Numbered from the stretch's first letter, positions 7,750 through 22,523 are shown. The stretch is 40,000 nt of DNA from Terriglobia bacterium (GCA_963842825.1 CAWJHX010000009.1:532520-572519), one strand, 5' to 3'. A program made the numbers and translations. The notes: generated by a model not told the origin, from the letters alone.

Positions 7750-7763
7750 GTCAATGCGGTCGG
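7750..7763. repeat. Left copy of the 14-bp direct repeat GTCAATGCGGTCGG (putative target-site duplication of the casposon)
   Basis: Identical 14-mer at 24743..24756 in the same orientation. Each copy directly abuts the outer end of a terminal inverted repeat. Confidence 0.85.
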
Positions 7764-7799
7764 GGGTTAGGAGATAGAGGGTTTTGAAACCGCACCCCC
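7764..7799 (+). repeat. Left terminal inverted repeat (TIR-L) of the casposon
   Basis: GGGTTAGGAGATAGAGGGTTTTGAAACCGCACCCCC. The reverse complement of 24707..24742 is GGGTTAGGAGATAGAGGGGTTTGAAACCGCACCCCC, so 35/36 positions are identical. This also explains the shared peptide GCGFK(T/P)LYLLT in spurious ORFs 7738..8118(-) and 24637..24927(+). Confidence 0.9.
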
Positions 7800-8111
7800 T
7801 ATCTAACCGCGCGGTGCTCCATGTTTGTCGTGGCGACGCCGCGCCGCGATTTTGTGGGTGCAGCGTTGCGTAGCCGTCGGGTCTTGGATGAAACCGTGTC
7901 GGCTGTGAAGCCGAGAAAACACGGCTCTGCTGATTTAATTTAGTGCAGGGTGGAATAGCCCGCCGTAGCAGACCTTGCCGGTGACGCTCCTGTGGAAGCT
8001 GGTGTACTGGCCGCCACAGGCAACTTCTCCGGTCACGCCTTCGTGATAGCTGGTGTGACGGGCCAGAGATAAAGGACCAGAGGCGCGGCACACGTTTTAT
8101 ACTTTGGGGAA

Positions 8112-8624
8112 ATGCCAATTGACGCCTGCACCAGTACTTTCGCAGAGATGGCCGCGAGCATCCTGCCGGGTGATATGGCGAGGCTCCGGGCGGCTCTAGC
8201 TACACCGGTTCCAATGTCTTCGTTTTGTGAACATGGGTTCGGCGTCAAATCCATCGTTGCAAAGTTGCGACGAAGTACAGATTTTTCAGGGTGCTATGTG
8301 CTGCTGCGGGAAGGAAAGCCGTTCTACGTTGGCATTTCACGAACCGTGGTTCAACGACTTCGCCAACATGTGACAGGAAAAACCCATTTCGACGCAAGTC
8401 TTGCCTACCTAATGGCGACCGATAAAACAGGCCACAAAATGAAACGGGCCGATGCCATGCTAGACCCTGTCTTCCGCACGGCCTTCGATCAAGCCAAGGC
8501 GCTGCTTCGAGATTGCAGTGCCGCGTTTATCGACATCGAAAACCCTCTCGAACTCTACCTGTTTGAAGCCTACTGCGCGATGGAGTTGGACACCTGCGAG
8601 TGGAACACGTTTCGGACCCATTGA
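8112..8624 (+). CDS. GIY-YIG nuclease superfamily-like protein (casposon cargo)
   Basis: GCYVLLREGKPFYVGISRTVVQRLRQH matches the GIY...YVG...R...H pattern. A downstream conserved Glu is plausible in LELYLFEAYCAMEL. The true start is uncertain, since several in-frame Met codons lie downstream of 8112. Confidence 0.5.
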   Translation: MPIDACTSTFAEMAASILPGDMARLRAALATPVPMSSFCEHGFGVKSIVAKLRRSTDFSGCYVLLREGKPFYVGISRTVVQRLRQHVTGKTHFDASLAYLMATDKTGHKMKRADAMLDPVFRTAFDQAKALLRDCSAAFIDIENPLELYLFEAYCAMELDTCEWNTFRTH

Positions 8625-8770
8625 TCGGCACTGGTTGCGCAAAGGACCCTTTGTGAGACACAACAAATTAGGTGGAGGACTTCGGAATCTGACTTAATCG
8701 ATAATCAAAGCATTCTCGAACAACCGCTAAATCCACCGCACAACTGTCACGCGGGGGAAGGAGTGAATTT

Positions 8771-9574
8771 ATGGGGGATGAGCGACTGCCTACACCAACA
8801 ACGCCGGTCGACCCCATTGCGGATGACGACCCCGTAAAGCTGCATCTTGAGGAGCGCGCTCAGCTCATCGACGCGGCCAGAGAGAACGCGCGAACGTTCG
8901 ACAAGGCTGTACTGACATTTGGCTCAGCCGTTTTCGGCTTCTCTATCGCATTCCTAAAGGATGTAGCCCCTCATCCTGCGCCCGGCACTCTGTGGTGGTT
9001 GGGTGGCGCATGGGCATCTTTCTCATTCGGTTTACTCAGCATACTTACGTCATTTCTCTGTGGCCAACAAGCTTTTCAGTTTGAAATTACCGAAAGTACC
9101 AACGCTCTGGCCCCAGGGTATCAGCGCAAAAAGAATCGCTGGAGTACGGCGGCCCAGTGCGGCAATGTTCTTTGCGTTGTGTTTCTCTTCTTTGGATTGC
9201 TGTGTTGGTCAAAGTTTGCATTTGATAACCTTAGCCGTGTAGACACCACGGCGACTACGGTTCAGACCCCGGTGGGAAAAGAGGGGCCAAAGGAAGGCGC
9301 ATTGAAACCTACGAAAGATACTTCAGACACTTTACCACTCAAAAAAACGTACACACCACCCCGAACACCGCCACCGCCTAACAGGCTGTTGAAGAATATT
9401 GGCGAGCTGAGCAGGAGAGCGTTCTTAGGGGCGAAGAAAGAGTTTCCGAGGGCGTGGGCAGGGGTTTCAGCGCCTGAGGAAGAGCCTCAGGCGGCGGCCT
9501 GGCGGCCTTTTACGCAGCCGCTTCCATCAGATTACGGATTCGGATCATATTATAGGCAGCGGCGGCGAAGGTGA
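8771..9574 (+). CDS. Membrane protein with proline-rich C-terminal tail; 3' end interrupted by IS insertion at 9381/9382 (reading frame continues into the IS)
   Basis: GGAAGGAG RBS upstream of the ATG at 8771. Predicted TM segments: VLTFGSAVFGFSIAFL, WWLGGAWASFSFGLLSILTSFL and NVLCVVFLFFGLLCW. From 9382 onward the translated sequence (NRLLKNIGELS...) is IS-derived. Removing the IS and one CTAA copy restores ...TYTPPRTPPPPKRNPPPPPSQKP*, ending at 10691. Confidence 0.6.
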   Translation: MGDERLPTPTTPVDPIADDDPVKLHLEERAQLIDAARENARTFDKAVLTFGSAVFGFSIAFLKDVAPHPAPGTLWWLGGAWASFSFGLLSILTSFLCGQQAFQFEITESTNALAPGYQRKKNRWSTAAQCGNVLCVVFLFFGLLCWSKFAFDNLSRVDTTATTVQTPVGKEGPKEGALKPTKDTSDTLPLKKTYTPPRTPPPPNRLLKNIGELSRRAFLGAKKEFPRAWAGVSAPEEEPQAAAWRPFTQPLPSDYGFGSYYRQRRRR

Positions 9575-10647
9575 ACATCCAAGCGACTCTGTCGCGGCCT
9601 CGATGCCTGGTCTTGCGAAGCCCCGCCGTGGTCTTGATCCAGCCGAATACCTGTTCGACTAACTTACGCTTCTTCTGACTCGCCCGATATCCATCGTGCC
9701 GCGTGGTGCGGACATCGATGCGGCTCCGCCGCCGGGTGTTGTTCTGCGCGATGTGCGGAGTTACGGCCCACTGTCGCAGACCTTCTACAAACGCACTGGT
9801 GTCATAACCCTTGTCCGCGCCCAACGTCACGCGCCGCCGATGGCCCGGAAGCCGAGCCGCCATCACCAGCGCCGCATCCCGCTCGGCTCGTCCGTTTGCT
9901 TCGGTGAGTTCGGCATCCACCGCCAGGCCATGCCGATTGTCGATGATCACATGACCGAGATACGCCATCTGCGCTTCCTTTCCGCTGCTCTTGCGATAGA
10001 GCTTCGCTTCCGGATCGGTGGTCGATTGATGCGTATCGTTGCGGCGTTTCTGTCCGCGGAATCCGCCCTCGCCATTCGTGTCGTCATCCGAGCCACCGTC
10101 TTTCGGACGGAAGCTCTTGTGCGATGCCCAGGCCTCGATCAGCGTGCCATCGACCGTGAAGTGTTCGTTGGAGAGCAACCGTAACGCGCGGGCTTGTTCC
10201 ACCACGCAAGAGAATAGTTCCTGCGCCACATCGCCCGCCAGCAGCCGTTCGCGATTCTTCGAAAACACCGCATGATTCCATGCCGGCTCGGTCATGTTCA
10301 ATCCCACGAACCACCGGAACAACAGGTTGTATTCCAGTTGCTCGACCAGCATTCGCTCGCTGCGAATCGAGTACAACGCCTGCAGCAACAGGGCGCGCAG
10401 TAATCTTTCCGGTGCAATCGAGGGACGTCCCGCTTTCGCGTACATCTCATCAAAGCGCCTCGACATCGATTCCAGCGCCGCATCCACCATGGCCCGCAGC
10501 GGACGCAACGGATGCTCTTGCGGCACCCGCTCCTCCAGCGTCCCGTATAGAAATAGCTCGTTATCTTGCCGATCGTCTCCGCGCATGATTGTAGGGCGTC
10601 GCCACTTTCCTTCAGGTCACAGCGATAAAGTGTTTTTCAACATTCTG
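9382..10647 (-). mobile_element. IS5-family insertion sequence nested in the casposon
   Basis: Single DDE transposase ORF. Imperfect terminal IRs: CAGGCTGTTGAAGAATA (left) versus CAGAATGTTGAAAAACA (reverse complement of the right end), 13/17 identical. Flanked by a 4-bp direct repeat CTAA (9378..9381 and 10648..10651), which matches the YTAR target duplication known for IS5-group elements. Confidence 0.75.
9510..10586 (-). CDS. IS5-family DDE transposase (InsH-like N-terminal DUF772 domain + DDE_Tnp_1)
   Basis: The sequence HPLRPLRAMVDAALESMSRRFDEMYAKAGRPSIAPERLLRALLLQALYSIRSERMLVEQLEYNLLFRWFVGL is a textbook IS5/IS1182-type transposase N-terminus. The C-terminal DDE region includes ...LGADKGYDT... 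and ...VEQVFGWIK. Confidence 0.9.
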   Translation of the reverse strand: MRGDDRQDNELFLYGTLEERVPQEHPLRPLRAMVDAALESMSRRFDEMYAKAGRPSIAPERLLRALLLQALYSIRSERMLVEQLEYNLLFRWFVGLNMTEPAWNHAVFSKNRERLLAGDVAQELFSCVVEQARALRLLSNEHFTVDGTLIEAWASHKSFRPKDGGSDDDTNGEGGFRGQKRRNDTHQSTTDPEAKLYRKSSGKEAQMAYLGHVIIDNRHGLAVDAELTEANGRAERDAALVMAARLPGHRRRVTLGADKGYDTSAFVEGLRQWAVTPHIAQNNTRRRSRIDVRTTRHDGYRASQKKRKLVEQVFGWIKTTAGLRKTRHRGRDRVAWMFTFAAAAYNMIRIRNLMEAAA

Positions 10648-10726
10648 CTAAACGCAATCCACCGCCACCACCACCTTCCCAAAAGCCGTAAGGTAGAAAC
10701 AGCACTCAAGGGCGAAACACACTCTT

Positions 10727-10859
10727 ATGAAAACCACGAACGATACCCCTGGCAAGTTGCCGCTAAAAGAGACCTACACGCCGCCACGGACGCCGCCACC
10801 ATCACCGAGACGGGCTCCTCCTACTCCTCCTCCCCCACCGCCACCATCTAAGAAAACTT
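10727..10859 (+). CDS. Small proline-rich ORF paralogous to the C-terminal tail of the 8771 gene
   Basis: Manual translation (below the track size cutoff): MKTTNDTPGKLPLKETYTPPRTPPPSPRRAPPTPPPPPPPSKKT*. It shares LPLK(K/E)TYTPPRTPPP with the 8771 product, but with many synonymous nucleotide differences. Coding status is uncertain. Confidence 0.3.
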
Positions 10860-11150
10860 AGTCGGTCACCTCGATGAACGGTCGAGGAAAACTCGCGGCA
10901 CGGCTCCGCCGCGAAAAACGGGCGAGCGAAGGACTCCTTTATGGAATGCGAGGATGTTGCGTGAGGAGCGTGGCGGCTCGGACGCGGCGAAGCTGGGCGG
11001 CTCAACGCCTTCTAAACGACTAGACTACTACATAAGAGCCTCGGACGATCGACAGCCAACGACGGGCGTTTCGCAAGGATAAGTTGAAACCTCGCCGGAA
11101 GACCAAGAAGCAAGCCCCCGCCCTGAGATTCAGGTAGCGATGTGAGGCAA

Positions 11151-14084
11151 TCATCTGTGAATGCCTTCCAACAAATTCCAGCGCCGAATTCCGCCTTTCG
11201 CGTCGCCAGAGATGGCGCTGTGTTGATCGGGACACCAGTCAACATCGCGTACATCAGCAGTATGGCCTTCTAAGATCCGAAGGCACTGCCGCGTCTCGAC
11301 GTCCCATTGCCGCACAGTGTTGTCTGCGGAGCCGGAGAGAGCGTGGCGACCGTCGGCAGCCCACGCCAGCGTCACTACATACTCAATGTGACCTTCGAAG
11401 GTGCGCAAGCATTGTTCCGTTTCAACATCCCAAAGCCGCAAAGAGCCGTCCTCAGAACTGGAAAGAAAGCGGGATTGATCCGGACTCCACTTCACACAAT
11501 ACACGGGAGAGTCATGGCCTCTGAAAATTCGCAGGCATTGGTGCGTCTCGACGTCCCATAGCCGCACGGTGTTGTCTTCGGAGCTAGAGAGTACGCGAGA
11601 CTGATCCGCATTCCATTCCGCGCTCGTAACTGTGTCAGTGTGTCCTTCAAGAACCCCAACGCAGCTTCCCATCTCAACGTTCCAAAGTCGCACGCTGTGG
11701 TCACAAGAGCCGGAACAGGCGTAGCGCTGATCACGGCTCCAAGCGACACTCCAGACTTGTTCTGTATGACCTTCGAGAATGCGCAAGCATAGACCCGTAT
11801 TGACGTCCCATAGCCTTACGGTATGATCATCAGCCGCAGACAACGCGGAACATCGGTCGTTGCTCCAGGCAACACATTCAACAGGTTTTGTATGCCCTTC
11901 GAATAGACGTAGGCAGTGCCCTGTTTCCAAGTCCCATAGCCGCACGGTCTTGTCCCGACCTCCCGTTAGAGCCCGTCTTGAATCCGGGCTGAATGCGTAG
12001 CAATAGAAGGGGCCCTTATCCGCGAGTTGGATGGCTTTGTTGATAAGCCCTTCCGGTGCCGTCGATGGTTCGAATGTCGTTGAGCGCTGAGTGGGGTCTT
12101 CGGCAACTGACTCGCGGCTGGCCCCCCACTTGTCGTGAGTGGTAGCGCCGAAGGAGAGCCGATTTTGAGTTCTTATGAACGTGAGCCGAGCCGAGCTTCG
12201 AAACCACCATTGACCGTCGGCATCCCTATACGTGACGCTGACGGTAATGCAATAATCTGGACCTCCATATATTCCACCGCCACCAGACTTCGAATCAGCT
12301 TCGGCGAAAGCCGCTGGCAGGTTCCATTTTTGCCCCGCTATCGCAAGCCCCGAATAACCTTCCAGCCACACCAAGGCAAATCCGGCCCTGCCTTTATCGA
12401 TCCGTGCAATTGTCTCGGCAGCGGCTCTCACCGATGGCGCAATCTCAAATCCCTCTATCGTTACGTCGTACGCCACTGTGCCATCGTTCACCAGATAAAA
12501 CCCGGCTTGGCCCGAACGTATTGGCACAGGGTGTTCCTCTGGGATTTCACCCCACTCGCGAAAGACAATTCGAGGACGCTTAGAAGGCGGGCGTGATCGG
12601 TTTTCTGTTGGATGATTGGATAAGAAATTGACTTGAGACGCCCCGCGCGGACGAAAGATTCCTTGGGGCAGAGCTCGCAAGAGCGCAAAAAATAGAGAAG
12701 CAGCTGTATTGCAAGCATAGTTTGTCCATGCTGGGTCTCTCCTGAACCCTACGACATCGCTAATGCCACGAATAGCTAGGATTGGGTATTCCTTATCCAT
12801 CCGCCGCGCTGCGGCGTAGACGCCCGAAAGCTCCATCTCAACAGCCACCAGATCACGTGCCGCTTGGCTCCACTGTTGGATGGTTACAGTATCTTTGATG
12901 AGGTGGCCGCTGGACGCGATCGAGCGAGCGGTTACAATCGGGTGTTCCCGCCTAGCCATCGATCCGAAGCGGGCATTGAGGGCTTCCTGAACTTTCTGCT
13001 TCCACTCCTTGGAACCGTAAAACCTATCGGGACTTGTATCAACGTCCGGACGCGGGAGTTGAATATGAGCTTCCGTGTTCCAATCCTCTAATGGCAAGGC
13101 ACGGAACGAAGCGATGAGGTCTTGTACCGCCTTGTTCATCGGGCCGCCTTGGTTGGCTAACTCCGGGTTTGTGCCTTCTATAAGCGCACTAACCGTAAAA
13201 TCGTGCAATCGATTTGCTACGACGACATCTCCCAATGTGAATTCAGTGTTTGGGATAGCGCCGCCAATACCGACGAGGGCCAGCCAGTGTGGGCTTAGGT
13301 CCTCGATGATATCGCGGGCTGCATCCTGCCCCGCATTGGGACCCTGTTCGATGGCTCGCAGGACAGCGACACGGTAGGAATCGCCGTTCTGACTAGATAC
13401 CGTTCCAATGACATATGTCCGGTGTTTAAGTCTGATGACGTTTTGTTCTGGTAGGCGACTCAAGACAGCATCGTATTCATCCTCTCGAACCGTGATGACC
13501 GCAATGTCTATTGGCGTTGGCTTGCCATACGCACCGCCAGTGTCATCACTTGGATGGCCCGGACGAACATAGAATTTGGAGGAGGGTTCACGCAAGGTCT
13601 CTTCGTTCGACTCACCCGCGTTGAATGAAGGCGTATTTTGGGCGGAAGAACTGATTGAGGGTGCCGGTATTAGACGTTTATAACCTTCGCCAATCCAGTG
13701 ACCGATCCGCTGTTGAATGACATGAAACTGCTGATCCCCCGGCATCGGTTGAAGTATTTCCGGTGGACATCCGAGGTAGTCTTGCCAAGCTTGGCGCCCG
13801 AGTGCGTTTGCCAGCGTCATGAATGCCTCTTGAGACTCCATGTTTCCTACGAGCTCAAGATAAGCTGTGGCGCGAATGTCGAGCTGGCGTAACACCACTT
13901 CGAGTCGAGCTGGAGTTGCCCACCGCTTTTCCTCCTCGGTGAGACTATCCACAAGCTGATTGGTGTCATTGATTATTCGAACCTGGGCAGCAGGAAACCC
14001 TGGATTGCGCTTTAGAATGTTCTCTGCTCTTTCTATAGCTTGCTGACGGGCGCGAGCGGCACGCCTCTCATGTCGCGTCATCAT
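11151..14084 (-). CDS. Multidomain protein: N-terminal helical region + PNP_UDP_1 nucleoside phosphorylase/nucleosidase-like domain + beta-rich linker + 7-bladed WD40 propeller (candidate conflict/defence effector; casposon cargo)
   Basis: Phosphorylase-superfamily signatures: ALVGIGGAIP, VAVEMELSGVYAAARR and ILAIRGISDVVG (about aa 195-470). Seven very regular ~42-aa WD40 units (GHTxxVxxVAWSxDxxxxLSxSxDxTVRLWDVETGQCLRxxE) span about aa 690-977. I found no Walker A/P-loop between them. Confidence 0.8.
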   Translation of the reverse strand: MMTRHERRAARARQQAIERAENILKRNPGFPAAQVRIINDTNQLVDSLTEEEKRWATPARLEVVLRQLDIRATAYLELVGNMESQEAFMTLANALGRQAWQDYLGCPPEILQPMPGDQQFHVIQQRIGHWIGEGYKRLIPAPSISSSAQNTPSFNAGESNEETLREPSSKFYVRPGHPSDDTGGAYGKPTPIDIAVITVREDEYDAVLSRLPEQNVIRLKHRTYVIGTVSSQNGDSYRVAVLRAIEQGPNAGQDAARDIIEDLSPHWLALVGIGGAIPNTEFTLGDVVVANRLHDFTVSALIEGTNPELANQGGPMNKAVQDLIASFRALPLEDWNTEAHIQLPRPDVDTSPDRFYGSKEWKQKVQEALNARFGSMARREHPIVTARSIASSGHLIKDTVTIQQWSQAARDLVAVEMELSGVYAAARRMDKEYPILAIRGISDVVGFRRDPAWTNYACNTAASLFFALLRALPQGIFRPRGASQVNFLSNHPTENRSRPPSKRPRIVFREWGEIPEEHPVPIRSGQAGFYLVNDGTVAYDVTIEGFEIAPSVRAAAETIARIDKGRAGFALVWLEGYSGLAIAGQKWNLPAAFAEADSKSGGGGIYGGPDYCITVSVTYRDADGQWWFRSSARLTFIRTQNRLSFGATTHDKWGASRESVAEDPTQRSTTFEPSTAPEGLINKAIQLADKGPFYCYAFSPDSRRALTGGRDKTVRLWDLETGHCLRLFEGHTKPVECVAWSNDRCSALSAADDHTVRLWDVNTGLCLRILEGHTEQVWSVAWSRDQRYACSGSCDHSVRLWNVEMGSCVGVLEGHTDTVTSAEWNADQSRVLSSSEDNTVRLWDVETHQCLRIFRGHDSPVYCVKWSPDQSRFLSSSEDGSLRLWDVETEQCLRTFEGHIEYVVTLAWAADGRHALSGSADNTVRQWDVETRQCLRILEGHTADVRDVDWCPDQHSAISGDAKGGIRRWNLLEGIHR

Positions 14085-14383
14085 TCCTCTTTTGTCAGAA
14101 CGAGAGGGTTACGACGGTGTCTGAAGATTCGCACCGAAACACTCTCGTGTGTCACACCTTTCAGCTAGGAAACTATTTTAGCGATTTGGCTATCTTTGAG
14201 CACAGCGAAGCCGGAGCCGCTGGAGCAAGCCGATGGCTGGTTTGCCCAAAACATTTCCACGGGCCCCCGGCGCATTTCCTCTCCGGATGGCATTCGTAGC
14301 CACACTTCCGTACGAAGATGACCAAAAAGCAATCTGAGTCTCCATTTAAATTGCGGGAAACATCGCGGTCTTCGACCAGTGAA

Positions 14384-16000
14384 TTATCGAATAACCTCCC
14401 GTTCAACTGGTGCGGGCTCCATTTCCGGATATCTTAAGATTCCGGTCAGTTCCGCCAGCTTCACCCAATGCCTCGGATGCGGAATTCGCTTGCCATTGCG
14501 AACGTTCGCAGCGTACGGCAGAGAAACGCCGAGCACCGATGCGATAGACGACCTCGTAACCGTCGCAAGCAATGGCACGATCTTGGCCCTATAAACATCT
14601 TCGTTCAACCAGGTGGGCAAGCTGGCCGCGTCCCAGTTCTTGGCAGCAGCAACATTCTTGCGCAGAGTAGCAGCGCGCCGGCTTTGAGCATCCGAAGAAT
14701 GTGCAACTGAGCGACCTTTCACGGCTGCAACTTTCATATGCTCTGTTGCGACGATCATCCCGCATGACTTGCAGTGTTCCGTTCCCCGGCGCGTTGTCTT
14801 TCCGCAAATGCGGCAAACGCCGTCCGGAAAGATTGGCCTAATCGAGGCATCGTCGAAACTGCTACCTTTCACGATCCGCTTCTGTTCTTGAGTCAGGCGT
14901 GTTGGTGTGGACCTGTAGCGCGCGTGTTTCGGACCTTTTGACCACAATGCCCGCGCCACATATTCCGCCAGCGGAGCTATTGCGCGACGCCACGTTTGTG
15001 CGGTTTCCGAAAGTAGCGCCGCGAGCGGTGCCATCAGGCGGCAGTTCCCATCGCTCTGCTCGAAAAACCATTCCCGCCTGAGCGGTTCGCGAGCGATCCA
15101 GTTCAACACGAAAGCGTCAACCTGAGGGCGAACCGGCTCCATCAGATCTGCAGGCAGACTATCGCGATGGGTAGCGTCCGCGTGCATAAAGCCAAGGCAC
15201 GGATCGAGACCTAGCATTGCCGTGGCGAGGCGGGCCTCGGCCTCCAGGATTGCGTAAAGGTAGTTCAGCATCGCATTGGCGGGATTCGATGCAAGTCGCG
15301 GTGATCCGGAAAGCGGAGATCTGCGGGCGCGAAACGTCCTCCAGTGATCCGGCATGCATTGCAAGTCCCTCTGCGGAAATTGAATCTGCACGTCTCGCCA
15401 CGCTCCCCAATATGCCGCGCCTGCTTGGGATTCAAGCAAACGGATCGAATCGAAAGCGCTCAGCGACGGAATCTCTGAACGAAGGCGGGCGATTGCATCT
15501 GCCGCGACCGGATTTCGAAGGTGTGAGCGCGCGATCTCTTCCTGACCTAGGAGTTTCCTGGTAATCAAATCGCGCGTGATTTGAATTCCGATGCCAGATT
15601 GCCGCGCGAGCGCCTGGGCGCGCCTGAGGTGGACTTCGGATTTCCGAACCGGCCCTGTAACGGTCAGAATCTTACCATCCCTTTCTAGCATGACGAACGC
15701 CGCGTTTTGATCCGCAAGCCAGCGCAACGCGGCCAGCGAAACCATTCCATCGTGACCAATGACCACGAGCCTTTCGAGCCCGTGAGCGACGCGCGGTAAT
15801 CGGGCGTAGCGACGATCAGCCGCGATGCCATCTTCCAGAATCAAATGGCCACTATCGACACGGACTTGAATTCCGTAGCCGAAAAGCGTTATGACGCCGT
15901 GGCGGGGTGTGATTGCTAATTGGGGATTTGCGGCCAGAATTTCTGGCACGTTGGATTTGCGCAGGCGTAGCCGATGCGCTACGGTTTTCGTAGCTGCCAT
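14384..16000 (-). CDS. cas1: Cas1-family integrase (casposase) with C-terminal zinc ribbon and HTH extension
   Basis: Cas1 N-terminal beta domain: GVITLFGYGIQVRVDSGHLILEDG...LERLVVIGHDGMVSLAALRWLADQNAAFVMLERDGKIL. Catalytic alpha domain: SNPANAMLNYLYAILEAEARLATAMLGLDPCLGFMHADATHRDSLPADLMEPVRPQVD (Glu / His / Asp-Glu triad context). C-terminal CRICGKTTRRGTEHCKSCG and an HTH-like SSIASVLGVSLPYAANVRNGKRIPHPRHW. GGAGGG RBS upstream of the ATG at 16000. No cas2 gene or repeat array in the window. Confidence 0.9.
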   Translation of the reverse strand: MAATKTVAHRLRLRKSNVPEILAANPQLAITPRHGVITLFGYGIQVRVDSGHLILEDGIAADRRYARLPRVAHGLERLVVIGHDGMVSLAALRWLADQNAAFVMLERDGKILTVTGPVRKSEVHLRRAQALARQSGIGIQITRDLITRKLLGQEEIARSHLRNPVAADAIARLRSEIPSLSAFDSIRLLESQAGAAYWGAWRDVQIQFPQRDLQCMPDHWRTFRARRSPLSGSPRLASNPANAMLNYLYAILEAEARLATAMLGLDPCLGFMHADATHRDSLPADLMEPVRPQVDAFVLNWIAREPLRREWFFEQSDGNCRLMAPLAALLSETAQTWRRAIAPLAEYVARALWSKGPKHARYRSTPTRLTQEQKRIVKGSSFDDASIRPIFPDGVCRICGKTTRRGTEHCKSCGMIVATEHMKVAAVKGRSVAHSSDAQSRRAATLRKNVAAAKNWDAASLPTWLNEDVYRAKIVPLLATVTRSSIASVLGVSLPYAANVRNGKRIPHPRHWVKLAELTGILRYPEMEPAPVEREVIR

Positions 16001-16100
16001 GGGAGTTTTACCCTCCTTTGGTTGTCAGGGCTCGCCGCCTGCTCGCAACAGACAGCAGGCCCGAACTACTTGTAATATCTATAACTTAGAATACCGCAAA

Positions 16101-16679
16101 CTATCCTTTTTTGCTCGGTTTAGAAGCCTTTCCGAGCAAAGAATTCCGGCGTCTCATTTCCGTTTCGTATTTTCGTCGGAGTGTTCTTGGCTTGAGCCCA
16201 ACCTCGGGAGCAAAACGCGAGTAAAGGTTTTTCAAGGATTCGGCTTCCTCTCCCTTCGCACGGTTTATCTTGTCCACAATTTCACCAATCTGCACGCTGC
16301 TCGCCAGCTTCTCCGACGGCCCACCCAATGGTTTTAGTGTATTTCTTGCTTTATCGAGGAGATGGCGAAATCCCGGCGCGATTGATCTAAAGATTAAACG
16401 CACCCTATCAAAATCTTCCGGCTTCGGCTCTTCCAAACTGAGCATTAAATTCTCAAATTTCTCACGAGTTTCGATTCGATCGAGATACCCTTCAAATGTC
16501 TTTCGGTTGTCGGCACCGGGTAACGACCTTCCGAAAACTGGCAGGAAAAGCGCACGGAACGCAGGAGATCGGAGCGCGGCTCGCACACGGACTACCACGT
16601 CTTCGTAGGTCTCCGACTGGGTCTCGGCAATGAGCCGATCAATTTCCTTCCAGATTTGTTGGAGAGTTTCGCGTGTCAC
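16101..16679 (-). CDS. Hypothetical protein upstream of and co-oriented with cas1 (casposon core)
   Basis: 192-aa ORF with a GTG start, charged and helical in character, with a basic C-terminus (RTLRRKYETEMRRRNSLLGKASKPSKKG). No family recognised. Confidence 0.5.
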   Translation of the reverse strand: MTRETLQQIWKEIDRLIAETQSETYEDVVVRVRAALRSPAFRALFLPVFGRSLPGADNRKTFEGYLDRIETREKFENLMLSLEEPKPEDFDRVRLIFRSIAPGFRHLLDKARNTLKPLGGPSEKLASSVQIGEIVDKINRAKGEEAESLKNLYSRFAPEVGLKPRTLRRKYETEMRRRNSLLGKASKPSKKG

Positions 16680-16825
16680 TGCGTGCTGCGACCCCTACTT
16701 GGATTGAACCCAGCGTACCAAAGAGCAAAACCGGCTGATGCCGGATGGCCAAGACACCCCCCATCTGGACCCGGCCCTTTTTTACCTCTACAACCCTGGT
16801 GTGACCTGTTGGCGAAAGGAAATTC

Positions 16826-17380
16826 ATGAAAAAGCAAAAACCAAAATCGAAATCGAATCAAAGAACAAAAAGAGATCTGATTCAAACGCGTACAGCATCC
16901 GCAAATAAACGACGCTCCGGCAAAAAGGCGCAGCTTCAGCAAAGTTTTCCCAAAGTGACCAGCGCGCTCTCAAAAATGCGAGCCGGTGCTTCGCTGCGAA
17001 AAGCCTCGCGAGAGTCCGGGGTGGCAGCCCGTACGGTGCTGAAACGAGCCGCTTCTGTCTTGCGCAAAAACAAGAGCGGGCGATACACCGCGAAGGCGGG
17101 CGATCGTCTGGTTCGGGTGCTCAAGATTCCAACACCCCAAGGTCCGGAGGAGATCAGTGTTCGCGGTCTGCGCGCCGCAAGTTTGCTGGGACGCTATTGG
17201 GCTGCCTTAGACAATTACTACGAAACGGGGGACATCTCAGCACTTAAGAAATTTGAGGGTGAGTCCGTTACTGCGGTCGATGGCACCAAGTACCCGTTGC
17301 TGACGGATCTCAATTTGCTTAATCGTCTAGGGTACGCGGGAGTGCTTTCGTTCGAATCCCTCTACGGGAGGAACGCGTAA
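16826..17380 (+). CDS. Basic HTH-containing hypothetical protein, first gene of the HNH-PolB operon
   Basis: Lys/Arg-rich N-terminus (MKKQKPKSKSNQRTKRD...). HTH-like LRKASRESGVAARTVLKRA. The TAA stop is followed immediately by the ATG of the next gene (taaATG at 17378-17383). Confidence 0.55.
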   Translation: MKKQKPKSKSNQRTKRDLIQTRTASANKRRSGKKAQLQQSFPKVTSALSKMRAGASLRKASRESGVAARTVLKRAASVLRKNKSGRYTAKAGDRLVRVLKIPTPQGPEEISVRGLRAASLLGRYWAALDNYYETGDISALKKFEGESVTAVDGTKYPLLTDLNLLNRLGYAGVLSFESLYGRNA

Positions 17381-17899
17381 ATGCCAAAGAAAATGCCCCA
17401 ACGAGATCCCATCAGTGCCTCCCAGCGAAAATCTGCCGCCGCTCGGCGTGTAGGGAAGAACGCACAGTGCACGCACTGCGGTGAAACGCGGCCTGAAGCC
17501 CTGATCGCGAATAGCAAACCACTCACATGCGCGGAATGCCAACGGAGGAGCCAAGGGAAATCGATCATAGATGATCACCACGTCGCCATGCGGGCAAACA
17601 ATCCGACGACGATGCCGGTTCCCGTGAACGATCACCGCGCCGAACTCAGCGCCGCCCAACATGATTGGCCCAAAAAGACGCGGGAGAATCCCGATGGCAG
17701 TCCGCTCATCGCCGCTGCCGGGTGTATTCGCGGATTCATGGACCAGCTTTTCTACTTGGTTGAAAAATTCTTGCACTGGACTGCTGGGATGCTTGAAGAC
17801 CTCGATTCTTACCTAATCGAAAAACTGGGGCCACAGTGGTGGTTACAGACTCCGCTGAAACAATTCGCGCCCCACGGAGGCTGCGATGCCAAATCCTAA
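17381..17899 (+). CDS. Zn-finger / HNH-like nuclease protein
   Basis: CTHCGE...(x19)...CAECQRR, followed by IIDDHHVAMRANNPTTMPVPVNDHRAEL (an H-N-H-like arrangement). It overlaps the PolB start by 14 nt. Confidence 0.5.
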   Translation: MPKKMPQRDPISASQRKSAAARRVGKNAQCTHCGETRPEALIANSKPLTCAECQRRSQGKSIIDDHHVAMRANNPTTMPVPVNDHRAELSAAQHDWPKKTRENPDGSPLIAAAGCIRGFMDQLFYLVEKFLHWTAGMLEDLDSYLIEKLGPQWWLQTPLKQFAPHGGCDAKS

Positions 17900-20800
17900 G
17901 CCAACTCCGTTGACGCTTGCCCTTCGGGTCTATCCCGAGCCCACGAACGCCAAGCGGGAACCGGCATCGCCCAAGCCATGGAAGTGCCCAAAGGCGATGC
18001 TCGTTTTTGACACCGAGACGCGGACCGACGCGACGCAACGCTTGACCTTTGGAAGCTACCGCTATTTTCATGAAGGCCGGTGCCTCGAAGAGGGCTTGTT
18101 CTACGCTGACGATTTGCCGGAAAAAGACCGTCGAGTTCTCGAAGAATACGTCGCAACGCACAGGCCTGAGACGGCTGGTGACGGCGTGCGGAATCTGAAG
18201 TTTCTTTCGCGCAGCCAGTTCGTTGACAAGTTCTATAGCTCCGTCTATAAGGGCCGTTGTCTTCTGGTTGGCTTCAATCTTCCCTTTGATCTCTCGCGCA
18301 TCGCCTGCGACTTCACAACCGCGCGCGGTCGCTTCGCGGGTGGTTTCTCCCTCGGCTTTTGGCTGTGGACGGATAAGACGGGCCGCGAGCGGGGGGATCA
18401 TTTCAGGCCCAGAATTGGGATCAAGCACATTGACAGCAAGCGCGCGCTGAAAGGTTTCACTGCGCGGAACGGCCCTGATCAAACGGACTTGATTCCAGAA
18501 GATTGCGAGACCGGGAGCCCCCAGAAGGGCTATAAGTTTCGGGGGCACTTCTTGGATCTGCGCACGCTGGCATTTGCGCTGACGGATAAGGGCTATTCTC
18601 TTGAGGCGGCTTGCGAAGCCTTCGGAGTGGAGCACGGAAAGCAGAAAGTCGCCAAGCATGGCGAGGTCACGGAAGAATACATCGACTACAATAGGCGCGA
18701 CGTTTTGGCCACTTCCGAACTCGCGGTGAAGCTCCTTGAAGAATACGACAAGCATCCAATCACGCTTCAGGCGACGAAGGCATATTCCCCGGCCTCCATC
18801 GGCAAGGCCTACTTGCGGGCGATGGGAATCGTGCCAATCCTGGAACGGCAACCGGGCTTCCCGAAGGAGTATCTCGGATACGCGCAGTCGGCCTTCTTTG
18901 GCGGACGAACGAGCGCACATATTCGAAAGCTTGCGGTCCCTGTTGTTTACACGGATTTTCTTTCGATGTATCCCACGGTAAACAGTCTCATGGATCTATG
19001 GCGCTTCGTTACTGCGCGTGAGATTCGGATCGTGAAGAACTGCAAGCGGGAGACCGAAGCATTCCTGGGCCGCGTGACCGTCGACGATCTTTTCAAGCCC
19101 GCCACGTGGAAATACCTGCCCGCGTTCGTCCGCATAATCCCGGACGGCGACATCCTGCCGACGCGCGCGAAATACAGCACCGTGAGCAACGATTGGCAGG
19201 TGGCCGTGAATCATGTGTATGCCGACAAGGACAGTTCGATCAATCAGGAACTGTGGTTTTCGCTTCCGGATATTGTTGCTTCGGTAATTCTGACGGGGCA
19301 AGTTCCCAAGATCGTGGATGCGTTCCGGATTGAGCCGAAAGGTAAAATGCAGGGGCTTACTCCAACCAAGCTGCGCGGATCGATTGAGATTGATCCAACG
19401 CGTCAAGACTTCTTCAAAGTGGCGATTGAAGAACGGAAACGCCTGCATTCGCACGCCGATCTTCCCGAAGCCGAAAAGAAGCGGCTCGACAAGGCCCTCA
19501 AGGTGCTGGCGAATGCCGCAAGCTACGGCATTTACGCCGAAATGAATCCTCAGGAGACGGATGAAAAGACGCAGGTAACGTGCCACGGCGTCGACTGCGA
19601 ACCGTTCACGTGCCGTGTTGCCCATCCCGACGTGCCGGGCGAATATTGCTTTCCGCCGCTTGCATCCTTAATAACAGGGGCAGCGCGTCTCATGTTGGCG
19701 CTGTTGGAACATTGCGTCTCGGCTTTGAATGGCACATACGCGATGGAGGACACCGATTCCATGGCGATTGTCGCGACCAAACGCGGCGGATTGGTGCCCT
19801 GTCCGGGAGGGTCCTTCAAGACCAAAGACGGTCGACCGGCGGTGAAAGCGCTCTCCTGGAAGCAGGTTGAAGAAATCTCGGAACGATTCGCGGCGCTGAA
19901 CCCGTACAATCGCGAAGCGGTGCCAGGATCAGTTCTCAAGATCGAAGAGGATAATTTTGATGCAAAAACAGGTCATCAGCGACAGCTCTCCTGCTTTGCA
20001 ATCTCGGCGAAGCGTTACACGCTATTCACGCTCGACAAGAGTGGTGAGCCCGTGATGCTGCGAAAGGAAGCCAACAACAAAAGTGACCGCTGGTCTCAGC
20101 ATGGCCTCGGGCATCTTTTGAATCCAACTGACACAAGCAGCGCGGATCGGGATTGGATCGGGCAAGTGTGGCTGAACATGTTGCGCAGATCTTATCGTCT
20201 GCCCGTTCAAAAGCTCAGTTTCGAAAAGTTACCCGCTGTTGGCCGCGTCAGTGTGGGCAGTCCCGCCACAATGCGCTCTTTTTCGAGTTTCAACGCTGGG
20301 AAGGCGTATTCCCAGCAAATTAAGCCCTTCAACTTTGTTCTGACTTGCCAAGTAAAGCAGCTTGGACATCCCAACGGCGTCGATCCAGAACATTTTCATC
20401 TGATCGCGCCGTCCGATGGCGAACCCGGCCGGTGGATCGAGACGGATTGGATCGACCAATATACCGGCAACCTATACAGGATCACAACCCAGGGTCACTA
20501 CGGAAGCCAAGATGCTGCGCGTGTAAAAACGTACGGCGAGATTCTGCGCGAATACGAATTTCATCCGGAGGCAAAGTGCGCCGACCAAGACGGAAATGCC
20601 TGCGAAAGGCGTGCGACTGGTTTGCTTCAACGAAGGCACGTCATAATTGACGGCATACGATTCATTGGAAAAGAATCGAATGCTCTGGAAGACGTTGAGG
20701 CCGGGCTGGTTCACTCCGCAGAAAGTGCCTACACCGAATACTGCGATCCGAAATACGACGAATGGACTACGAAAATCGCACCTGCATTGAAGAAAGCTCC

Positions 20801-20951
20801 GCTCTCGGTGCTGATCAAGCAAACGGGTCTTTCGCGCCGGGCGTTGATCAGTCTGCGCGTGGGTGACAGCAGGCCGCGCCGGAAGAACTGGGAACTAATC
20901 GCCGAAATACTCCGAAAACTTGGCGCTATCGGAAATTCGCGGCAGTCCTGA
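17886..20951 (+). CDS. polB: Family B DNA polymerase with 3'-5' exonuclease domain (casposon PolB)
   Basis: ExoI is LVFDTETRTD (FDTET at 18006-18020). ExoII is GFNLPFDLSRI and ExoIII is YIDYNRRDVLAT. Pol motif A is DFLSMYPT (18954-18977), motif B is KVLANAASYGIYAE (19500-19541) and motif C is YAMEDTDSMAIV (19737-19772). The protein is 1021 aa. Confidence 0.9.
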   Translation: MPNPKPTPLTLALRVYPEPTNAKREPASPKPWKCPKAMLVFDTETRTDATQRLTFGSYRYFHEGRCLEEGLFYADDLPEKDRRVLEEYVATHRPETAGDGVRNLKFLSRSQFVDKFYSSVYKGRCLLVGFNLPFDLSRIACDFTTARGRFAGGFSLGFWLWTDKTGRERGDHFRPRIGIKHIDSKRALKGFTARNGPDQTDLIPEDCETGSPQKGYKFRGHFLDLRTLAFALTDKGYSLEAACEAFGVEHGKQKVAKHGEVTEEYIDYNRRDVLATSELAVKLLEEYDKHPITLQATKAYSPASIGKAYLRAMGIVPILERQPGFPKEYLGYAQSAFFGGRTSAHIRKLAVPVVYTDFLSMYPTVNSLMDLWRFVTAREIRIVKNCKRETEAFLGRVTVDDLFKPATWKYLPAFVRIIPDGDILPTRAKYSTVSNDWQVAVNHVYADKDSSINQELWFSLPDIVASVILTGQVPKIVDAFRIEPKGKMQGLTPTKLRGSIEIDPTRQDFFKVAIEERKRLHSHADLPEAEKKRLDKALKVLANAASYGIYAEMNPQETDEKTQVTCHGVDCEPFTCRVAHPDVPGEYCFPPLASLITGAARLMLALLEHCVSALNGTYAMEDTDSMAIVATKRGGLVPCPGGSFKTKDGRPAVKALSWKQVEEISERFAALNPYNREAVPGSVLKIEEDNFDAKTGHQRQLSCFAISAKRYTLFTLDKSGEPVMLRKEANNKSDRWSQHGLGHLLNPTDTSSADRDWIGQVWLNMLRRSYRLPVQKLSFEKLPAVGRVSVGSPATMRSFSSFNAGKAYSQQIKPFNFVLTCQVKQLGHPNGVDPEHFHLIAPSDGEPGRWIETDWIDQYTGNLYRITTQGHYGSQDAARVKTYGEILREYEFHPEAKCADQDGNACERRATGLLQRRHVIIDGIRFIGKESNALEDVEAGLVHSAESAYTEYCDPKYDEWTTKIAPALKKAPLSVLIKQTGLSRRALISLRVGDSRPRRKNWELIAEILRKLGAIGNSRQS

Positions 20952-21365
20952 GCCGCGCGGAGACGCCGAAAGCTTTCCACCGTGACATAACGGCGGATTC
21001 TCGGCGGAAACATCGGACGGCCCTGGGTATATGCTGGTCGGAAGAACGTGCTTCGGCTGGGACTAATCCGCTGGCTTCTCCTCTACCTCCTCGCAGCGGC
21101 CGGGTCTGTTCGCCTGCTGGCCGGGAGACGGGTCTGGGATTTCAAGACGAACAGGGAGGTGGTGTCGTGGCAGCTCAGATTTATAACTTACTCGACCACG
21201 CTCGATGGGGACGGTTTCAATCGGGACAGAAAACCCATCCCGTGCGCGATCTCGCCGGACGGTGAATACGTTGTTGAGGGTGGCGACGGAAAGTATGTTA
21301 TCGTCTACGACCGAACGAGGTCGCGACGAGAGGAGATTTCGAGGTTCTGCGCGAAAGCGGCGGAC

Positions 21366-21563
21366 CTATCTCTTTGTGCTTCGCTTCTTCCCGCGCTTCG
21401 CTTCCGCAAGAGCGGCCGCAATCGGGCCACGGTCTCTCTTCGGGGTCTTCGGGTCGCGCAGGTCTTTGCCAGCCTGCGAGGCAACTTTCTTGGAAGTCGG
21501 CATGCCCTCATTATACACCCAATAAATCATTTCCATACGTTCCTGTTTGTACTTCAGGCCCAT
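21366..21563 (-). CDS. Small basic hypothetical protein (65 aa)
   Basis: MGLKYKQERMEMIYWVYNEGMPTSKKVASQAGKDLRDPKTPKRDRGPIAAALAEAKRGKKRSTKR. The codon pattern looks more coding-like than the Arg/Leu/Ser-rich antisense half of ORF 21048..21602. There is no obvious RBS. Confidence 0.3.
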   Translation of the reverse strand: MGLKYKQERMEMIYWVYNEGMPTSKKVASQAGKDLRDPKTPKRDRGPIAAALAEAKRGKKRSTKR

Positions 21564-21610
21564 AAGGGACGTTATGTTGCTCTAAACTTGGAAAGGAGGT
21601 AGTCTCCTTT

Positions 21611-22327
21611 TTGATGAACAACCTCCCGAACAGCCCACCGGCCGGAGACACCTGCTACGCATGTGAGCGACGGGCCACCACGAGGGAACACGCGCCACCA
21701 AAAAGCTTTTTCCCGATGGAAAAACGCAAGAATTTAATTGTCGTTCCATCCTGCTCGGTCCACAATTGCGATAACTCTCCGGATGTCGAATACGTTCGAA
21801 ACGCAATCGCGTTTCTCGCGGGCCTAAACGGAACTGGCGAATTATTGATCGACACCGCAAAGCGATCGTTCGATCACAGTCCCGCCCTGTTTAAGCGGAC
21901 GTTTCAATCCTTCGTTGTCCATTCCCAAGAAGAACAAGTGGGCACATACAAGGCCGACCTACCACGGGTTAGAACAGTAATGACAGCGGTGGCCCAGGCG
22001 CTCCATTATCGAGATCAGCATCAAAAGTGGGGCCGTTGGCACGTGTTCGTACCGAGCCTCGGGTCAGAGGCATCGTTAATTCACAAACGCTCTGATGGCT
22101 GGGAAGCGTTCAGGGACTTATTAAGCCGCATCCCCTATGTAGATCAGCCCACGGCTGAACCGGAAGTCTTCAGATACGGAAGCCACGCACTTGATTGGGG
22201 CTGGATATATCAGTTCACCTTCTACGGCGGCTTCGTCGTCAATGCGTGGATGCTTCGCGAAGACGCTGATGACCCATATGCCACAGCAACCGAAACGAGA
22301 CACCCAGAGCGCGCGCCAAACCAATGA
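21611..22327 (+). CDS. HNH (beta-beta-alpha-Me)-like N-terminal domain protein (casposon cargo)
   Basis: CYACERRATTREHAPPKSFF...NLIVVPSCSVHN fits a CxxC...EH...N...CxxHN HNH-type finger. AAAGGAGG RBS at 21592-21599. The start is the TTG at 21611 or the ATG at 21614. The C-terminal ~170 aa are unassigned. Confidence 0.45.
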   Translation: MMNNLPNSPPAGDTCYACERRATTREHAPPKSFFPMEKRKNLIVVPSCSVHNCDNSPDVEYVRNAIAFLAGLNGTGELLIDTAKRSFDHSPALFKRTFQSFVVHSQEEQVGTYKADLPRVRTVMTAVAQALHYRDQHQKWGRWHVFVPSLGSEASLIHKRSDGWEAFRDLLSRIPYVDQPTAEPEVFRYGSHALDWGWIYQFTFYGGFVVNAWMLREDADDPYATATETRHPERAPNQ

Positions 22328-22523
22328 ACGAGGTGTCATTCACCCGAGGGCACGGTGACCCCGAGCTTCCGGCACTCATACAGCCGCTTTTCATGCGATC
22401 CATTTCGCACTAGACATTTGCAACATGCGAGACCCTTTGTTTTCGGGCCTTCGGCGAACGTTGCAAAACTTACCCTTTGCGAAACATGACACGGCCAAGC
22501 CCTTCCCGAGGAATGGTGATTCC

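Follow-up and report, generated by a model that had tools for sequence, protein, structure and literature searches.

How might a nucleotide-cleaving effector of the immune type be controlled when the protein that carries it has no NTPase switch, and what is such a protein doing on a mobile element? The question is raised by a gene in the window analysed here, a stretch of 40,000 nucleotides (40 kb) of bacterial DNA. A first-pass annotation had read it as the cargo of a casposon, a nucleoside-phosphorylase-type (PNP) domain joined to a WD40 propeller, and had likened the product to an NLR without its STAND ATPase. Here we report a computational analysis of the gene, its homologues and the surrounding element, from which we lean, with somewhat better than even confidence, towards a self-contained, NTPase-independent sensor-effector of the prokaryotic conflict or immunity type, carried as variable cargo of an acidobacterial casposon.

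The casposon and its cargo gene

The gene lies within a complete, recently mobile casposon of ~17 kb (7764-24742). The element is bounded by TIRs, an inverted-repeat pair of 36 nt with 97% complementarity (left, 7764-7799; right, 24707-24742), and by a perfect 14-bp TSD, GTCAATGCGGTCGG, with copies at 7750-7763 and 24743-24756; the left TIR is related to that of another acidobacterial casposon (L010). The element encodes a Cas1 casposase extended at its C-terminus by a Cys-rich/HTH region (14384-16000, minus strand; PF01867, E=8.7e-40; TIGR00287, 99 bits; a weak HTH_3 match); its gene lies 299 nt upstream of the cargo gene on the same strand. Also encoded is a family-B DNA polymerase (PolB; 17886-20951, plus strand; PF03175, E=4.6e-6, 26.2 bits for a cutoff of 25.8), which shares 66% identity across its entire length (~1010 aa) with the PolB proteins of two related casposons, L006 and L010. 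The first description as casposon cargo thus holds, since Cas1, PolB, TIRs and the 14-bp TSD bracket the gene. The GC fraction is 0.50-0.585 in the casposon, against 0.605-0.633 in six 1-kb intervals to its left and 0.62-0.65 in two to its right. Pfam scans of the window ORFs of at least 150 aa found no other cas genes. The host seems to belong to the Acidobacteriota and is probably a soil acidobacterium.

The cargo gene occupies 11151-14084 on the minus strand and is a complete ORF of 977 aa, stop codon included, as called from the reading frame and Pfam; the protein first annotated there is therefore real as a reading frame. Its start codon is backed by two homologues, P0003 and P0004, that share this starting position, and a purine-rich AAGAGGA stands immediately 5' of the tandem ATG ATG. 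A terminator-like hairpin with a T-run follows ~240 nt past the stop codon (10892-10915, minus strand), a consensus match of a kind as frequent as expected from shuffled sequence; in the promoter and terminator scan as a whole, the number of sites was no higher than in shuffles. An assembly or fusion artefact was rejected because the order of PNP domain (C-terminal half), middle domain and WD40 propeller recurs in an independent contig (P0001 in L001), and it is also countered by P0002, in which the N-terminus, PNP and middle domains are arranged as here.

The same contig, L001, holds a second copy of the casposon that is 99.7-99.9% identical to the first, with flanks that are 89-97% identical, and its junction has the same TSD GTCAATGCGGTCGG and flank. 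In that copy an IS630-type element interrupts the PNP–WD40 gene and PolB is likewise split, while the window copy has gained an IS5-like insertion sequence (DDE_Tnp_1/DUF772 transposase by Pfam; 9382-10647, minus strand) ~0.5 kb downstream of the gene, which is missing from the otherwise collinear L001 copy. Such insertions would fit a decaying, non-functional passenger of a degenerating element. We consider this extremely unlikely, as the ORF in the window is uninterrupted across its 977 codons, the conserved catalytic and structural positions are all intact, neither Cas1 nor PolB is truncated, and TIRs and TSD are close to perfect. The break in the sister copy does indicate that the gene is dispensable, and its absence from related casposons that it is not required for casposon maintenance.

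That absence also bears on whether the gene serves the casposon and not the host, be it through addiction or post-segregational killing or by attacking competing mobile elements. The cargo has spread recently, to judge from the identity of the two copies relative to their flanks, genes for relatives, whether of the protein or of its middle domain, adjoin integrases, a primase and a ParB-methylase, and expressing an immune PNP domain by itself is toxic (10.1101/2023.01.24.525353). We nevertheless regard such a role as quite unlikely: related casposons do without the gene, no antitoxin-like or immunity partner was detected in the casposon, and a simple addiction toxin would not be expected to have a sensor propeller.

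Domains of the 977-aa protein

The protein consists, in order, of an N-terminal helical domain, the PNP domain, a beta-rich middle domain and a seven-blade WD40 propeller. The PNP domain, a predicted nucleosidase of the PNP_UDP_1 fold, spans aa ~191-470 (12675-13514, minus strand) by Pfam, PADLOC and alignments. PF01048 (PNP_UDP_1) matches aa 194-451 well above its gathering cutoff (E=6.8e-13, 49.0 bits against 25.1), and the three signatures noted at first reading are all present, GIGGA at aa 272, VEMEL at aa 415 and IRGISD at aa 438. The predicted catalytic residues E203, M417/E418 and S442/D443 pair in the alignment with E12, M173/E174 and S196/D197 of MtnN, whose roles we take to be those known from the E. 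coli MTAN active site. The same residues line up with a CBASS PNP-SAVED effector, and they are invariant or nearly so among 34 family members and in a six-way alignment that includes MtnN and the CBASS effector. The loss of catalytic residues on alignment, named beforehand as evidence against the annotation, was not seen at any MTAN/Cap17-type position, and the catalytic site is predicted to be intact. By motif position alone, D443 corresponds to the catalytic Asp that was mutated in Cap17 (D472A) and DtcC (D353A) (10.1101/2023.01.24.525353). Relative to MtnN, the domain has an insertion of ~60-90 aa (aa ~295-385).

In sequence comparisons the PNP domain groups with immune PNPs (Cap17/CBASS/Avs-associated) and not with housekeeping MtnN. 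A Nostoc PNP-SAVED protein, whose gene adjoins a CBASS cyclase, aligns over its full length (67 bits, E=7e-17), whereas E. coli MtnN aligns in local fragments only (24 bits, E=0.003), and the PADLOC effector models PDC-M60C (2.4e-18) and CBASS 'Effector PN-superfamily' (7.9e-12) match as well. Identity with housekeeping MtnN or futalosine hydrolase was rejected because the NCBIfam matches to both are weak and every housekeeping model scores far under its cutoff (MTAN model, 43 bits against 169). The phage collection searched held no relative of the domain. The fold is common to salvage enzymes, and Aravind and colleagues first predicted that conflict-system PNPases make nucleotide-derived signals (PMC7159879); the domain might thus be a signal-generating (second messenger) or a metabolic or salvage enzyme, with the WD40 and middle domains as scaffolds or regulatory modules. 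This is very unlikely in our estimation, given the housekeeping scores and the marginal similarity to MtnN, the finding that the tested immune-clade PNPs deplete ATP rather than signal (10.1101/2023.01.24.525353), and the lack of any detected receptor or downstream effector gene in the casposon.

Among the 120 relatives listed, those at 35-57% identity carry additional modules of the AAA_16, NACHT or other STAND, TPR, TIR, kinase, Roc-COR-LRR, ankyrin or WD40 type. P0010 is a PNP-STAND protein whose PNP domain shows 55% identity; P0104 is a second NTPase-less PNP-WD40 protein, whose gene adjoins CHAT, TCAD9 and NOV_C genes. Among the closest homologues the effector is constant and the C-terminus has been swapped, being a WD40 propeller in the window protein, another beta domain in P0002 and unrelated in P0004. 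The gene for P0004 lies in an ordinary chromosomal context, which we count against our main reading, though it adjoins a BrnT toxin gene.

Neither Walker A nor Walker B was found in the 977-aa protein, loose patterns included, and 'GK[ST]' occurs nowhere in it. Pfam at E<=10 returned only PF01048 for aa 1-690, with no NACHT, NB-ARC or AAA_16, and a PDB sequence search gave no match. Motif scan and Pfam thus agree with the initial observation that no Walker A lies between effector and repeats, and the linker holds, at the same threshold, no canonical NACHT or NB-ARC domain of the kind that would make the protein an ordinary NLR-like one. A cryptic NTPase at aa 480-690 was rejected because the region has no such motifs and is mostly beta. 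Among the features of STAND/NLR proteins, the terminal effector and the C-terminal repeat sensor are present and the central P-loop NTPase is absent. No STAND gene was found in the window, and no STAND, CD-NTase or histidine kinase gene in the casposon; in its ORFs of at least 150 aa, several small ORFs being unannotated, neither Pfam nor PADLOC revealed a cyclase, a histidine kinase or a receiver domain. Membership of CBASS or Detocs was rejected in view of the missing partner genes (CD-NTase; DtcA and DtcB), and PADLOC detected no complete known system at the locus.

The seven-bladed WD40 beta-propeller covers aa 677-970 (11175-12056, minus strand). PF00400 matches in seven stretches (E=1.5e-70), and repeat dissection resolved seven units of exactly 42 aa each with a mean pairwise identity of 43%, which agrees with the seven C-terminal blades counted originally. 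WD40 propellers are generic scaffolds, and the role of this one as a sensor is assumed by analogy.

The region between PNP domain and propeller had been described as a beta-rich linker of ~200 aa that fills the space. Family search and alignment define instead a conserved domain of ~150 aa (aa ~503-654; 12123-12578, minus strand), whose family comprises 179 representative clusters at E<=1e-3. On this evidence it is a discrete, recurrent and unannotated domain family, the profile of which had no match in Pfam, PADLOC or PDB sequences. Elsewhere the domain follows TIR (P0126), PNP or TM segments; N-terminal TM segments are its commonest context, found in 53 of the 73 short members extended at the N-terminus. 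A narrower alignment yielded eight loci, most of them short, in which no partner gene is conserved, and the window holds no paralogue of the domain. About nine strands and two helices are predicted, which makes the domain mostly beta. An AF2 model built on a four-sequence alignment has low confidence (pLDDT 52), and the weak Foldseek matches of this low-confidence model are all to Ig-like folds; the probable fold is an Ig-like beta-sandwich that includes one conserved helix. At this model confidence a cryptic regulatory nucleotide-binding function is conceivable, a point against our main reading. Identity with TRADD-N was rejected because size (~150 aa) and predicted fold differ; there was no Pfam match to PF09034 or PF13820 (TRADD_N/NCOA6), a negative that is one of size and sequence.

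Since the middle domain recurs after TIR and TM modules, the protein is more than an NLR minus its ATPase. The original likeness to an NLR without STAND ATPase stands as regards domain content and the absent NTPase, as an analogy and not as membership. A broader, doubtful proposal would make this domain a general NTP-independent trigger-sensing or oligomerisation switch for interchangeable death effectors (TM, TIR, PNP), which would here replace the STAND NTPase between effector and WD40 sensor and would define a new single-chain immune receptor family, largely of uncultured soil bacteria, with casposons as vehicles of innate immunity.

The N-terminus, initially given as ~190 helical residues, is helical at aa 1-140 (13665-14084, minus strand), where AF2 predicts a compact bundle of ~5 long helices (pLDDT 84.4, pTM 0.76). 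The remaining ~50 aa (aa ~141-190; 13515-13664, minus strand) are a low-complexity linker rich in Ser, Pro and Gly by inspection of the sequence, and pLDDT is under 50 from aa 142 on. The Foldseek comparison suggested in the first-pass annotation was run on this domain as well as on the middle domain, and the confident N-terminal model had no significant match in the PDB (best E=0.36, TM<=0.33). The domain is rare, with ~7 homologues; word-indexed searches returned three matches for it and one for the middle domain. It may be autoinhibitory or an adaptor.

An adaptor role is central to the proposal of a multi-component system in which the protein supplies the effector-sensor arm and its N-terminal, EAD/Death-like domain docks on a STAND or other NTPase in trans, encoded at another site in the genome. 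Two homologues have extra Pfam domains beside PNP, PF19955 in P0042 and PF19961 in P0083, which we take to be EAD-type families, and the N-terminal domain is a compact helical bundle on a flexible linker. According to Kaur et al., helical EADs fused N-terminally to PNPase effectors pair with core components (PMC7159879, PMC8195603). Set against this, the domain has no EAD or Death-like Pfam match even at E<=10 and no fold match, its full-length homologues all occur with PNP (the others being fragments) and none is a core component, and neither the 40-kb window, in which no STAND gene was found, nor the flanks of L001, L002 and L005 contain a paralogue. We therefore hold an NTPase in trans to be unlikely.

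Proposed mode of action

Under the favoured reading of a self-contained sensor-effector, the WD40 propeller would bind a protein derived from an invader, either a phage or a mobile element, and binding would lift autoinhibition and/or drive oligomerisation of the PNP domain. The Ig-like middle domain, which recurs beside effector-type modules (TIR, PNP, TM), might assist as a coupling or oligomerisation module. The activated PNP domain would then cleave the N-glycosidic bond of an adenine nucleotide, most likely ATP or dATP as in Cap17 and DtcC, the nucleotide pool would be depleted and the infection aborted, and the casposon would benefit through protection of its host. The abortive-infection or addiction function is one that we infer purely by reasoning.

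If this is true, a WD40 propeller controls an ATP-nucleosidase-type immune effector without an NTPase, and the effector-plus-sensor logic of Dsr1/Dsr2 would be extended to PNP effectors and beta-propeller sensors. It would also give a function to an unannotated family of 179 clusters that recurs with TIR, PNP and TM modules, and provide a clear case of a casposon spreading an innate-immunity gene, although surveys find casposons to be defence-poor.

Comparison with known systems

Immune PNP (ATP nucleosidase) effectors of the Cap17/DtcC type occur in CBASS, Detocs, pAgo and Avs systems (Rousset et al. 2023, 10.1101/2023.01.24.525353). The casposon protein resembles them in its PNP_UDP_1 fold, in the retained catalytic Asp and Glu, and in that the closest relatives of the domain combine it with immune modules of the STAND, TIR, SAVED-type or repeat kind. 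It differs in that the PNP domain, with its predicted nucleosidase activity, is fused to a helical N-terminus, an unannotated beta domain and WD40 repeats, and in lacking a cyclic-oligonucleotide sensor, a phosphorelay and a STAND NTPase; its activation therefore cannot come from any of these three.

NLR-like STAND proteins (Avs/bNACHT; fungal PNP_UDP-NACHT-WD40) share with it the order of effector, middle region and repeat sensor and the PNP type of effector, and STAND proteins also use regular WD40 repeats as sensors (PMC13581612). Their central NTPase is absent here, and the beta-rich domain of ~150 aa stands in its place. A sensor can work without a STAND NTPase, as in Dsr1, which shares its sensor with Avs7 (PMC13581612). 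Dsr1 and Dsr2, like the casposon protein, have a nucleotide-depleting effector fused directly to protein-sensing repeats with no NTPase switch, but they combine a SIR2 NADase with alpha-helical repeats, whereas the present protein combines PNP with WD40, has two extra domains and shows no sequence relationship to them. In TRADD-N proteins, a PNPase or TIR effector and repeats flank a central RRM-like alpha+beta TRADD-N domain of ~90 aa (uS motif), the proposed switch (Kaur et al. 2021, PMC8195603). The three-part layout without an NTPase is the same, with a central domain here that is larger (~150 aa) and mostly beta. Precedents such as Dsr1 and the TRADD-N proteins make an NTPase-less effector-plus-sensor design less surprising.

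Casposons (Krupovic et al. 2014-2017) are self-synthesising transposons with a Cas1-solo and PolB. CRISPR adaptation evolved from them. The present element resembles known casposons in its Cas1 with a C-terminal Zn/HTH extension, its PolB of the protein-primed type, its TIRs and its 14-bp TSD, and differs in its immune-type PNP-WD40 cargo and its apparently acidobacterial host. Reported casposon cargo consists mainly of nucleases and methyltransferases, with a low density of defence genes (PMC11551731, PMC9939771), and Acidobacteriota are not mentioned in the 2023 casposon review. With its apparently acidobacterial host, the element adds Acidobacteriota to the range of casposons and is evidence of a transfer that took place very recently.

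Domain architecture of the PNP-WD40 protein

The open reading frame at 11151-14084 (-) is real and encodes a protein of 977 aa, the length given in the first-pass annotation, which had also described a PNP_UDP_1-type domain and seven C-terminal WD40 blades. Both were recovered, the former as a Pfam match (aa 194-451, E=6.8e-13, above the gathering cutoff) with the named signatures at aa 272 (GIGGA), aa 415 (VEMEL) and aa 438 (IRGISD), the latter as seven stretches (E=1.5e-70). The propeller (aa 677-970) consists of 7 units of exactly 42 aa each, with a mean pairwise identity of 43%; the differences cluster at a few positions per blade. We favour, with modest confidence, a single-protein reading, in which the WD40 propeller would sense an invader, the PNP domain would cleave an adenine nucleotide and the infection would be aborted.

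A family profile of 34 members was aligned to solved MTA/SAH nucleosidases, and a six-way alignment included E. coli MtnN and a CBASS effector. In both alignments, E203, M417/E418 and S442/D443 match E12, M173/E174 and S196/D197, the catalytic positions of E. coli MTAN; all of these residues are kept, and they are invariant or nearly invariant across the PNP family. Judged by motif position, D443 would correspond to Cap17 D472 and DtcC D353, and the mutations D472A and D353A abolish defence (10.1101/2023.01.24.525353). A housekeeping nucleosidase was rejected because the NCBIfam MTAN equivalog scored far under its cutoff (43 bits vs. 169) and BLASTP similarity to E. coli MtnN was marginal (24 bits, two short segments only), whereas a CBASS effector, the PNP-SAVED protein of a Nostoc plasmid that adjoins a CBASS oligonucleotide cyclase, aligned end to end (67 bits, E=7e-17). 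This alignment takes in a C-terminal W..YA.N.AA helix, about 20 residues beyond the Pfam PNP_UDP_1 match. PADLOC matched the CBASS 'PN-superfamily' effector model and the candidate component PDC-M60C. The domain is shown by computation to be an immune-type nucleosidase, predicted to be catalytically intact; that the protein is a signalling or metabolic enzyme is very unlikely.

Among the 120 relatives listed, those at 35-57% identity have PF01048 along with various partners. About 10 of the matches listed carry AAA_16, NACHT or other STAND-type domains, three carry Roc-COR-LRR, and others have TIR, protein kinase, TPR, ankyrin or WD40 partners; most have no further recognised domain. This range is that of the network described for immune PNP effectors. 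A 576-aa 'hypothetical protein' on the Acaryochloris marina plasmid pREB2 (L013 5974-7704), whose PNP domain is 39% identical to that of the window protein, adjoins a plasmid replication gene and gives the family a cultured-organism handle.

The reported absence of a Walker A motif was confirmed by strict and loose regular expressions, which gave zero matches for Walker A or Walker B; GK[ST] occurs nowhere in the protein. In aa 1-690, no Pfam family besides PF01048 was found even at E<=10, NACHT and NB-ARC included; phmmer gave zero matches to PDB sequences for the same region. The "~200-aa beta-rich linker" of the first-pass annotation is more than a linker: it contains a discrete middle domain (aa ~503-654; 12123-12578), found in 179 representative clusters by exhaustive HMMER search (124 at E<=1e-10). 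The family has no Pfam, PADLOC or PDB-sequence match, and the members looked up are all unnamed metagenomic proteins. The domain follows PNP in the window protein and its homologue P0002, follows a TIR domain in P0126, and also occurs within large helical proteins, while its commonest setting is the C-terminus of ~250-aa proteins, 53 of which, among the 73 having an N-terminal extension, have N-terminal transmembrane segments. Its alignment has alternating beta-strand patterns, a GFxLxNDGxxA motif and a single conserved helix (KWDLLGAM). The AF2 model of the domain is mostly beta, albeit at low confidence (pLDDT 52), and Foldseek with this model gave weak matches, all to Ig-like sandwiches (ASH/SPD-2, PapD, MSP; E>=1.5e-3, TM<=0.35). 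We conclude that the middle domain is not an NTPase; it is probably an interaction module of Ig-like fold, although that fold is assigned tentatively. TRADD-N, which holds the same position in a published NTPase-less effector-repeat theme, was rejected as its identity, as it is a ~90-aa RRM-like unit (PMC8195603).

Most members of the middle-domain family (P0125-P0272) are ~250-aa proteins that combine transmembrane segments, a coiled coil and the middle domain; others are fusions to TIR or PNP, and P0149 and P0167 contain the domain twice. Five large members (P0131, P0133, P0143, P0166 and P0259) have in common a conserved C-terminal module of ~100 aa with the consensus …SRERLxLxxxLAxELAxIKxxLxGxxTPxxLxxKYPxFxLW…AYAENLTLxxFGxTSRETLKKDRxK….

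The N-terminal region (aa 1-140) is confidently predicted to be a helical bundle (pLDDT 84); no PDB structure resembles it significantly. Only about seven homologues were found; every full-length one has a PNP domain, and the remainder are fragments. An NTPase might be provided in trans by a partner to which the protein docks via this domain, which we consider unlikely; neither the window nor the related loci compared contain a paralogue of the domain, and no STAND NTPase, CD-NTase, histidine kinase or receiver domain was found among the casposon ORFs via Pfam or PADLOC.

The casposon and its second copy

The location in a casposon proposed in the first-pass annotation was borne out. Cas1 (14384-16000; PF01867, E=8.7e-40) has a C-terminal Cys-rich/HTH extension and lies on the same strand, with the PNP-WD40 gene 299 nt downstream; a family-B polymerase gene (17886-20951) is close by in divergent orientation. 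The three genes are enclosed by terminal inverted repeats of 36 nt (7764-7799 and 24707-24742, 97% complementary), and a perfect direct duplication of 14 bp (GTCAATGCGGTCGG) lies just outside the pair; the element is therefore a complete casposon of ~17 kb. Its G + C content is 0.50-0.585, compared with 0.605-0.633 in the left flank (six 1-kb windows) and 0.62-0.65 in the right (two).

Further cargo includes a large NHL-repeat beta-propeller protein (22524-24722, (-)) with a weak PADLOC PD-T4-6 match confined to the repeats. Because its listed TTG start overlaps the right inverted repeat, the real start is probably an ATG at about 24620; the N-terminus (MSLRPLWLVVFAS…) would then resemble a signal peptide. 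At the left end, a small GIY-YIG nuclease-like ORF (8112-8624, (+)) has weak Pfam and PADLOC (UzuA, PDC-S14) matches. An IS5-like element (9382-10647; DUF772 + DDE_Tnp_1 transposase, 358 aa) has inserted within the casposon; it is overlapped by a mechanical ORF (8771-9574) whose full extent probably does not represent a genuine gene.

A second copy of the casposon, without the IS5-like element, is present on an independent metagenome contig (L001; ENA ERZ25039467 contig_82083), the whole of which was set against 7764-30200. The two copies are 99.7-99.9% identical in the casposon body, 96.4% in the left-end segment with the GIY-YIG ORF (7764-9381) and 89-97% in the chromosomal flanks, and the contrast between body and flanks argues for recent mobility. 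At L001 14082-14131, compared with 7750-7799 and 24707-24756 here, the casposon end matching window 7764 (GIY-YIG side) abuts the target-site duplication and the flank found after window 24742; the target site is therefore the same and the orientation reversed, either by independent site-specific insertion or by inversion through recombination between the terminal repeats. In L001, an IS630/DDE_3 element (L001 8634-9743) interrupts the PNP domain and leaves the gene in pieces of 237 and 662 aa, and PolB is also split (500 + 540 aa). That the gene is decaying cargo is nevertheless highly improbable for the window, where the 977-aa reading frame is in one piece.

Casposase relatives at 51-66% identity came solely from Acidobacteriota MAGs, whose elements have Cas1, PolB (66% identity) and two small ORFs in common and lack the PNP-WD40 gene. 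The slot after Cas1 in one related locus (L006 11619-14863) holds genes for an N6/N4 DNA methylase, a Methyltransf_35 protein and a HATPase_c_3 (GHKL) protein, which may be different, defence-like cargo. Judged from this gene content, the PNP-WD40 gene is variable casposon cargo. A role of the gene in addiction or in competition between elements is quite unlikely. A related acidobacterial casposon of 12.2 kb (L010 2111-14356) has 40-nt terminal repeats clearly related to those of the window.

Elsewhere in the window, a cluster of REP-like inverted repeats (29425-31654; 39-56 nt, 81-87% complementary), together with a hairpin of 36 nt and 97% (29425-29460/29551-29586), surrounds two IS200-like Y1_Tnp ORFs (29721-30266 and 30273-30986) and looks like a RAYT/REP locus.

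Relatives, proposed function and known systems

The closest homologues keep the N-terminal and PNP domains and exchange the C-terminus: the WD40 propeller of the window protein is replaced by another beta domain after the middle domain in P0002, and P0004 has an unrelated domain after PNP. P0104 (688 aa) is a second PNP-WD40 protein that lacks an NTPase and has only a short linker; CHAT (caspase-like), TCAD9 and NOV_C genes lie alongside (L003 1-10067), and a further WD40 protein is encoded 5.5 kb downstream. The P0004 gene is chromosomal and adjoins a BrnT toxin gene, a ParB-methylase gene lies downstream of the P0002 gene, and middle-domain relatives have integrases and a primase alongside.

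In the favoured single-protein reading, the propeller would sense an invader protein and signal to the PNP domain by lifting autoinhibition, by oligomerisation or by both, a step in which the middle domain may assist. The PNP domain would then cleave an adenine nucleotide, which on the model of Cap17 and DtcC would be ATP/dATP, leading to abortive infection. The first-pass annotation had compared the protein to an NLR without its STAND ATPase. The missing NTPase stands (no Walker motif, no Pfam match to an NTPase family), but membership in the NLR/STAND proteins failed because there is no NTPase, and the likeness is limited to layout. Functionally nearest are Dsr1/Dsr2-type proteins, in which the effector is fused directly to the sensor. 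A 2026 study found the Dsr1 sensor to be common to Avs7, so the same sensor can work both with a STAND module and in its absence (PMC13581612). New here are the joining of PNP and WD40 with an unannotated beta domain in one protein, two undescribed domains, and the carrier, an acidobacterial casposon, a class of elements reported as poor in defence genes (PMC11551731; PMC9939771).
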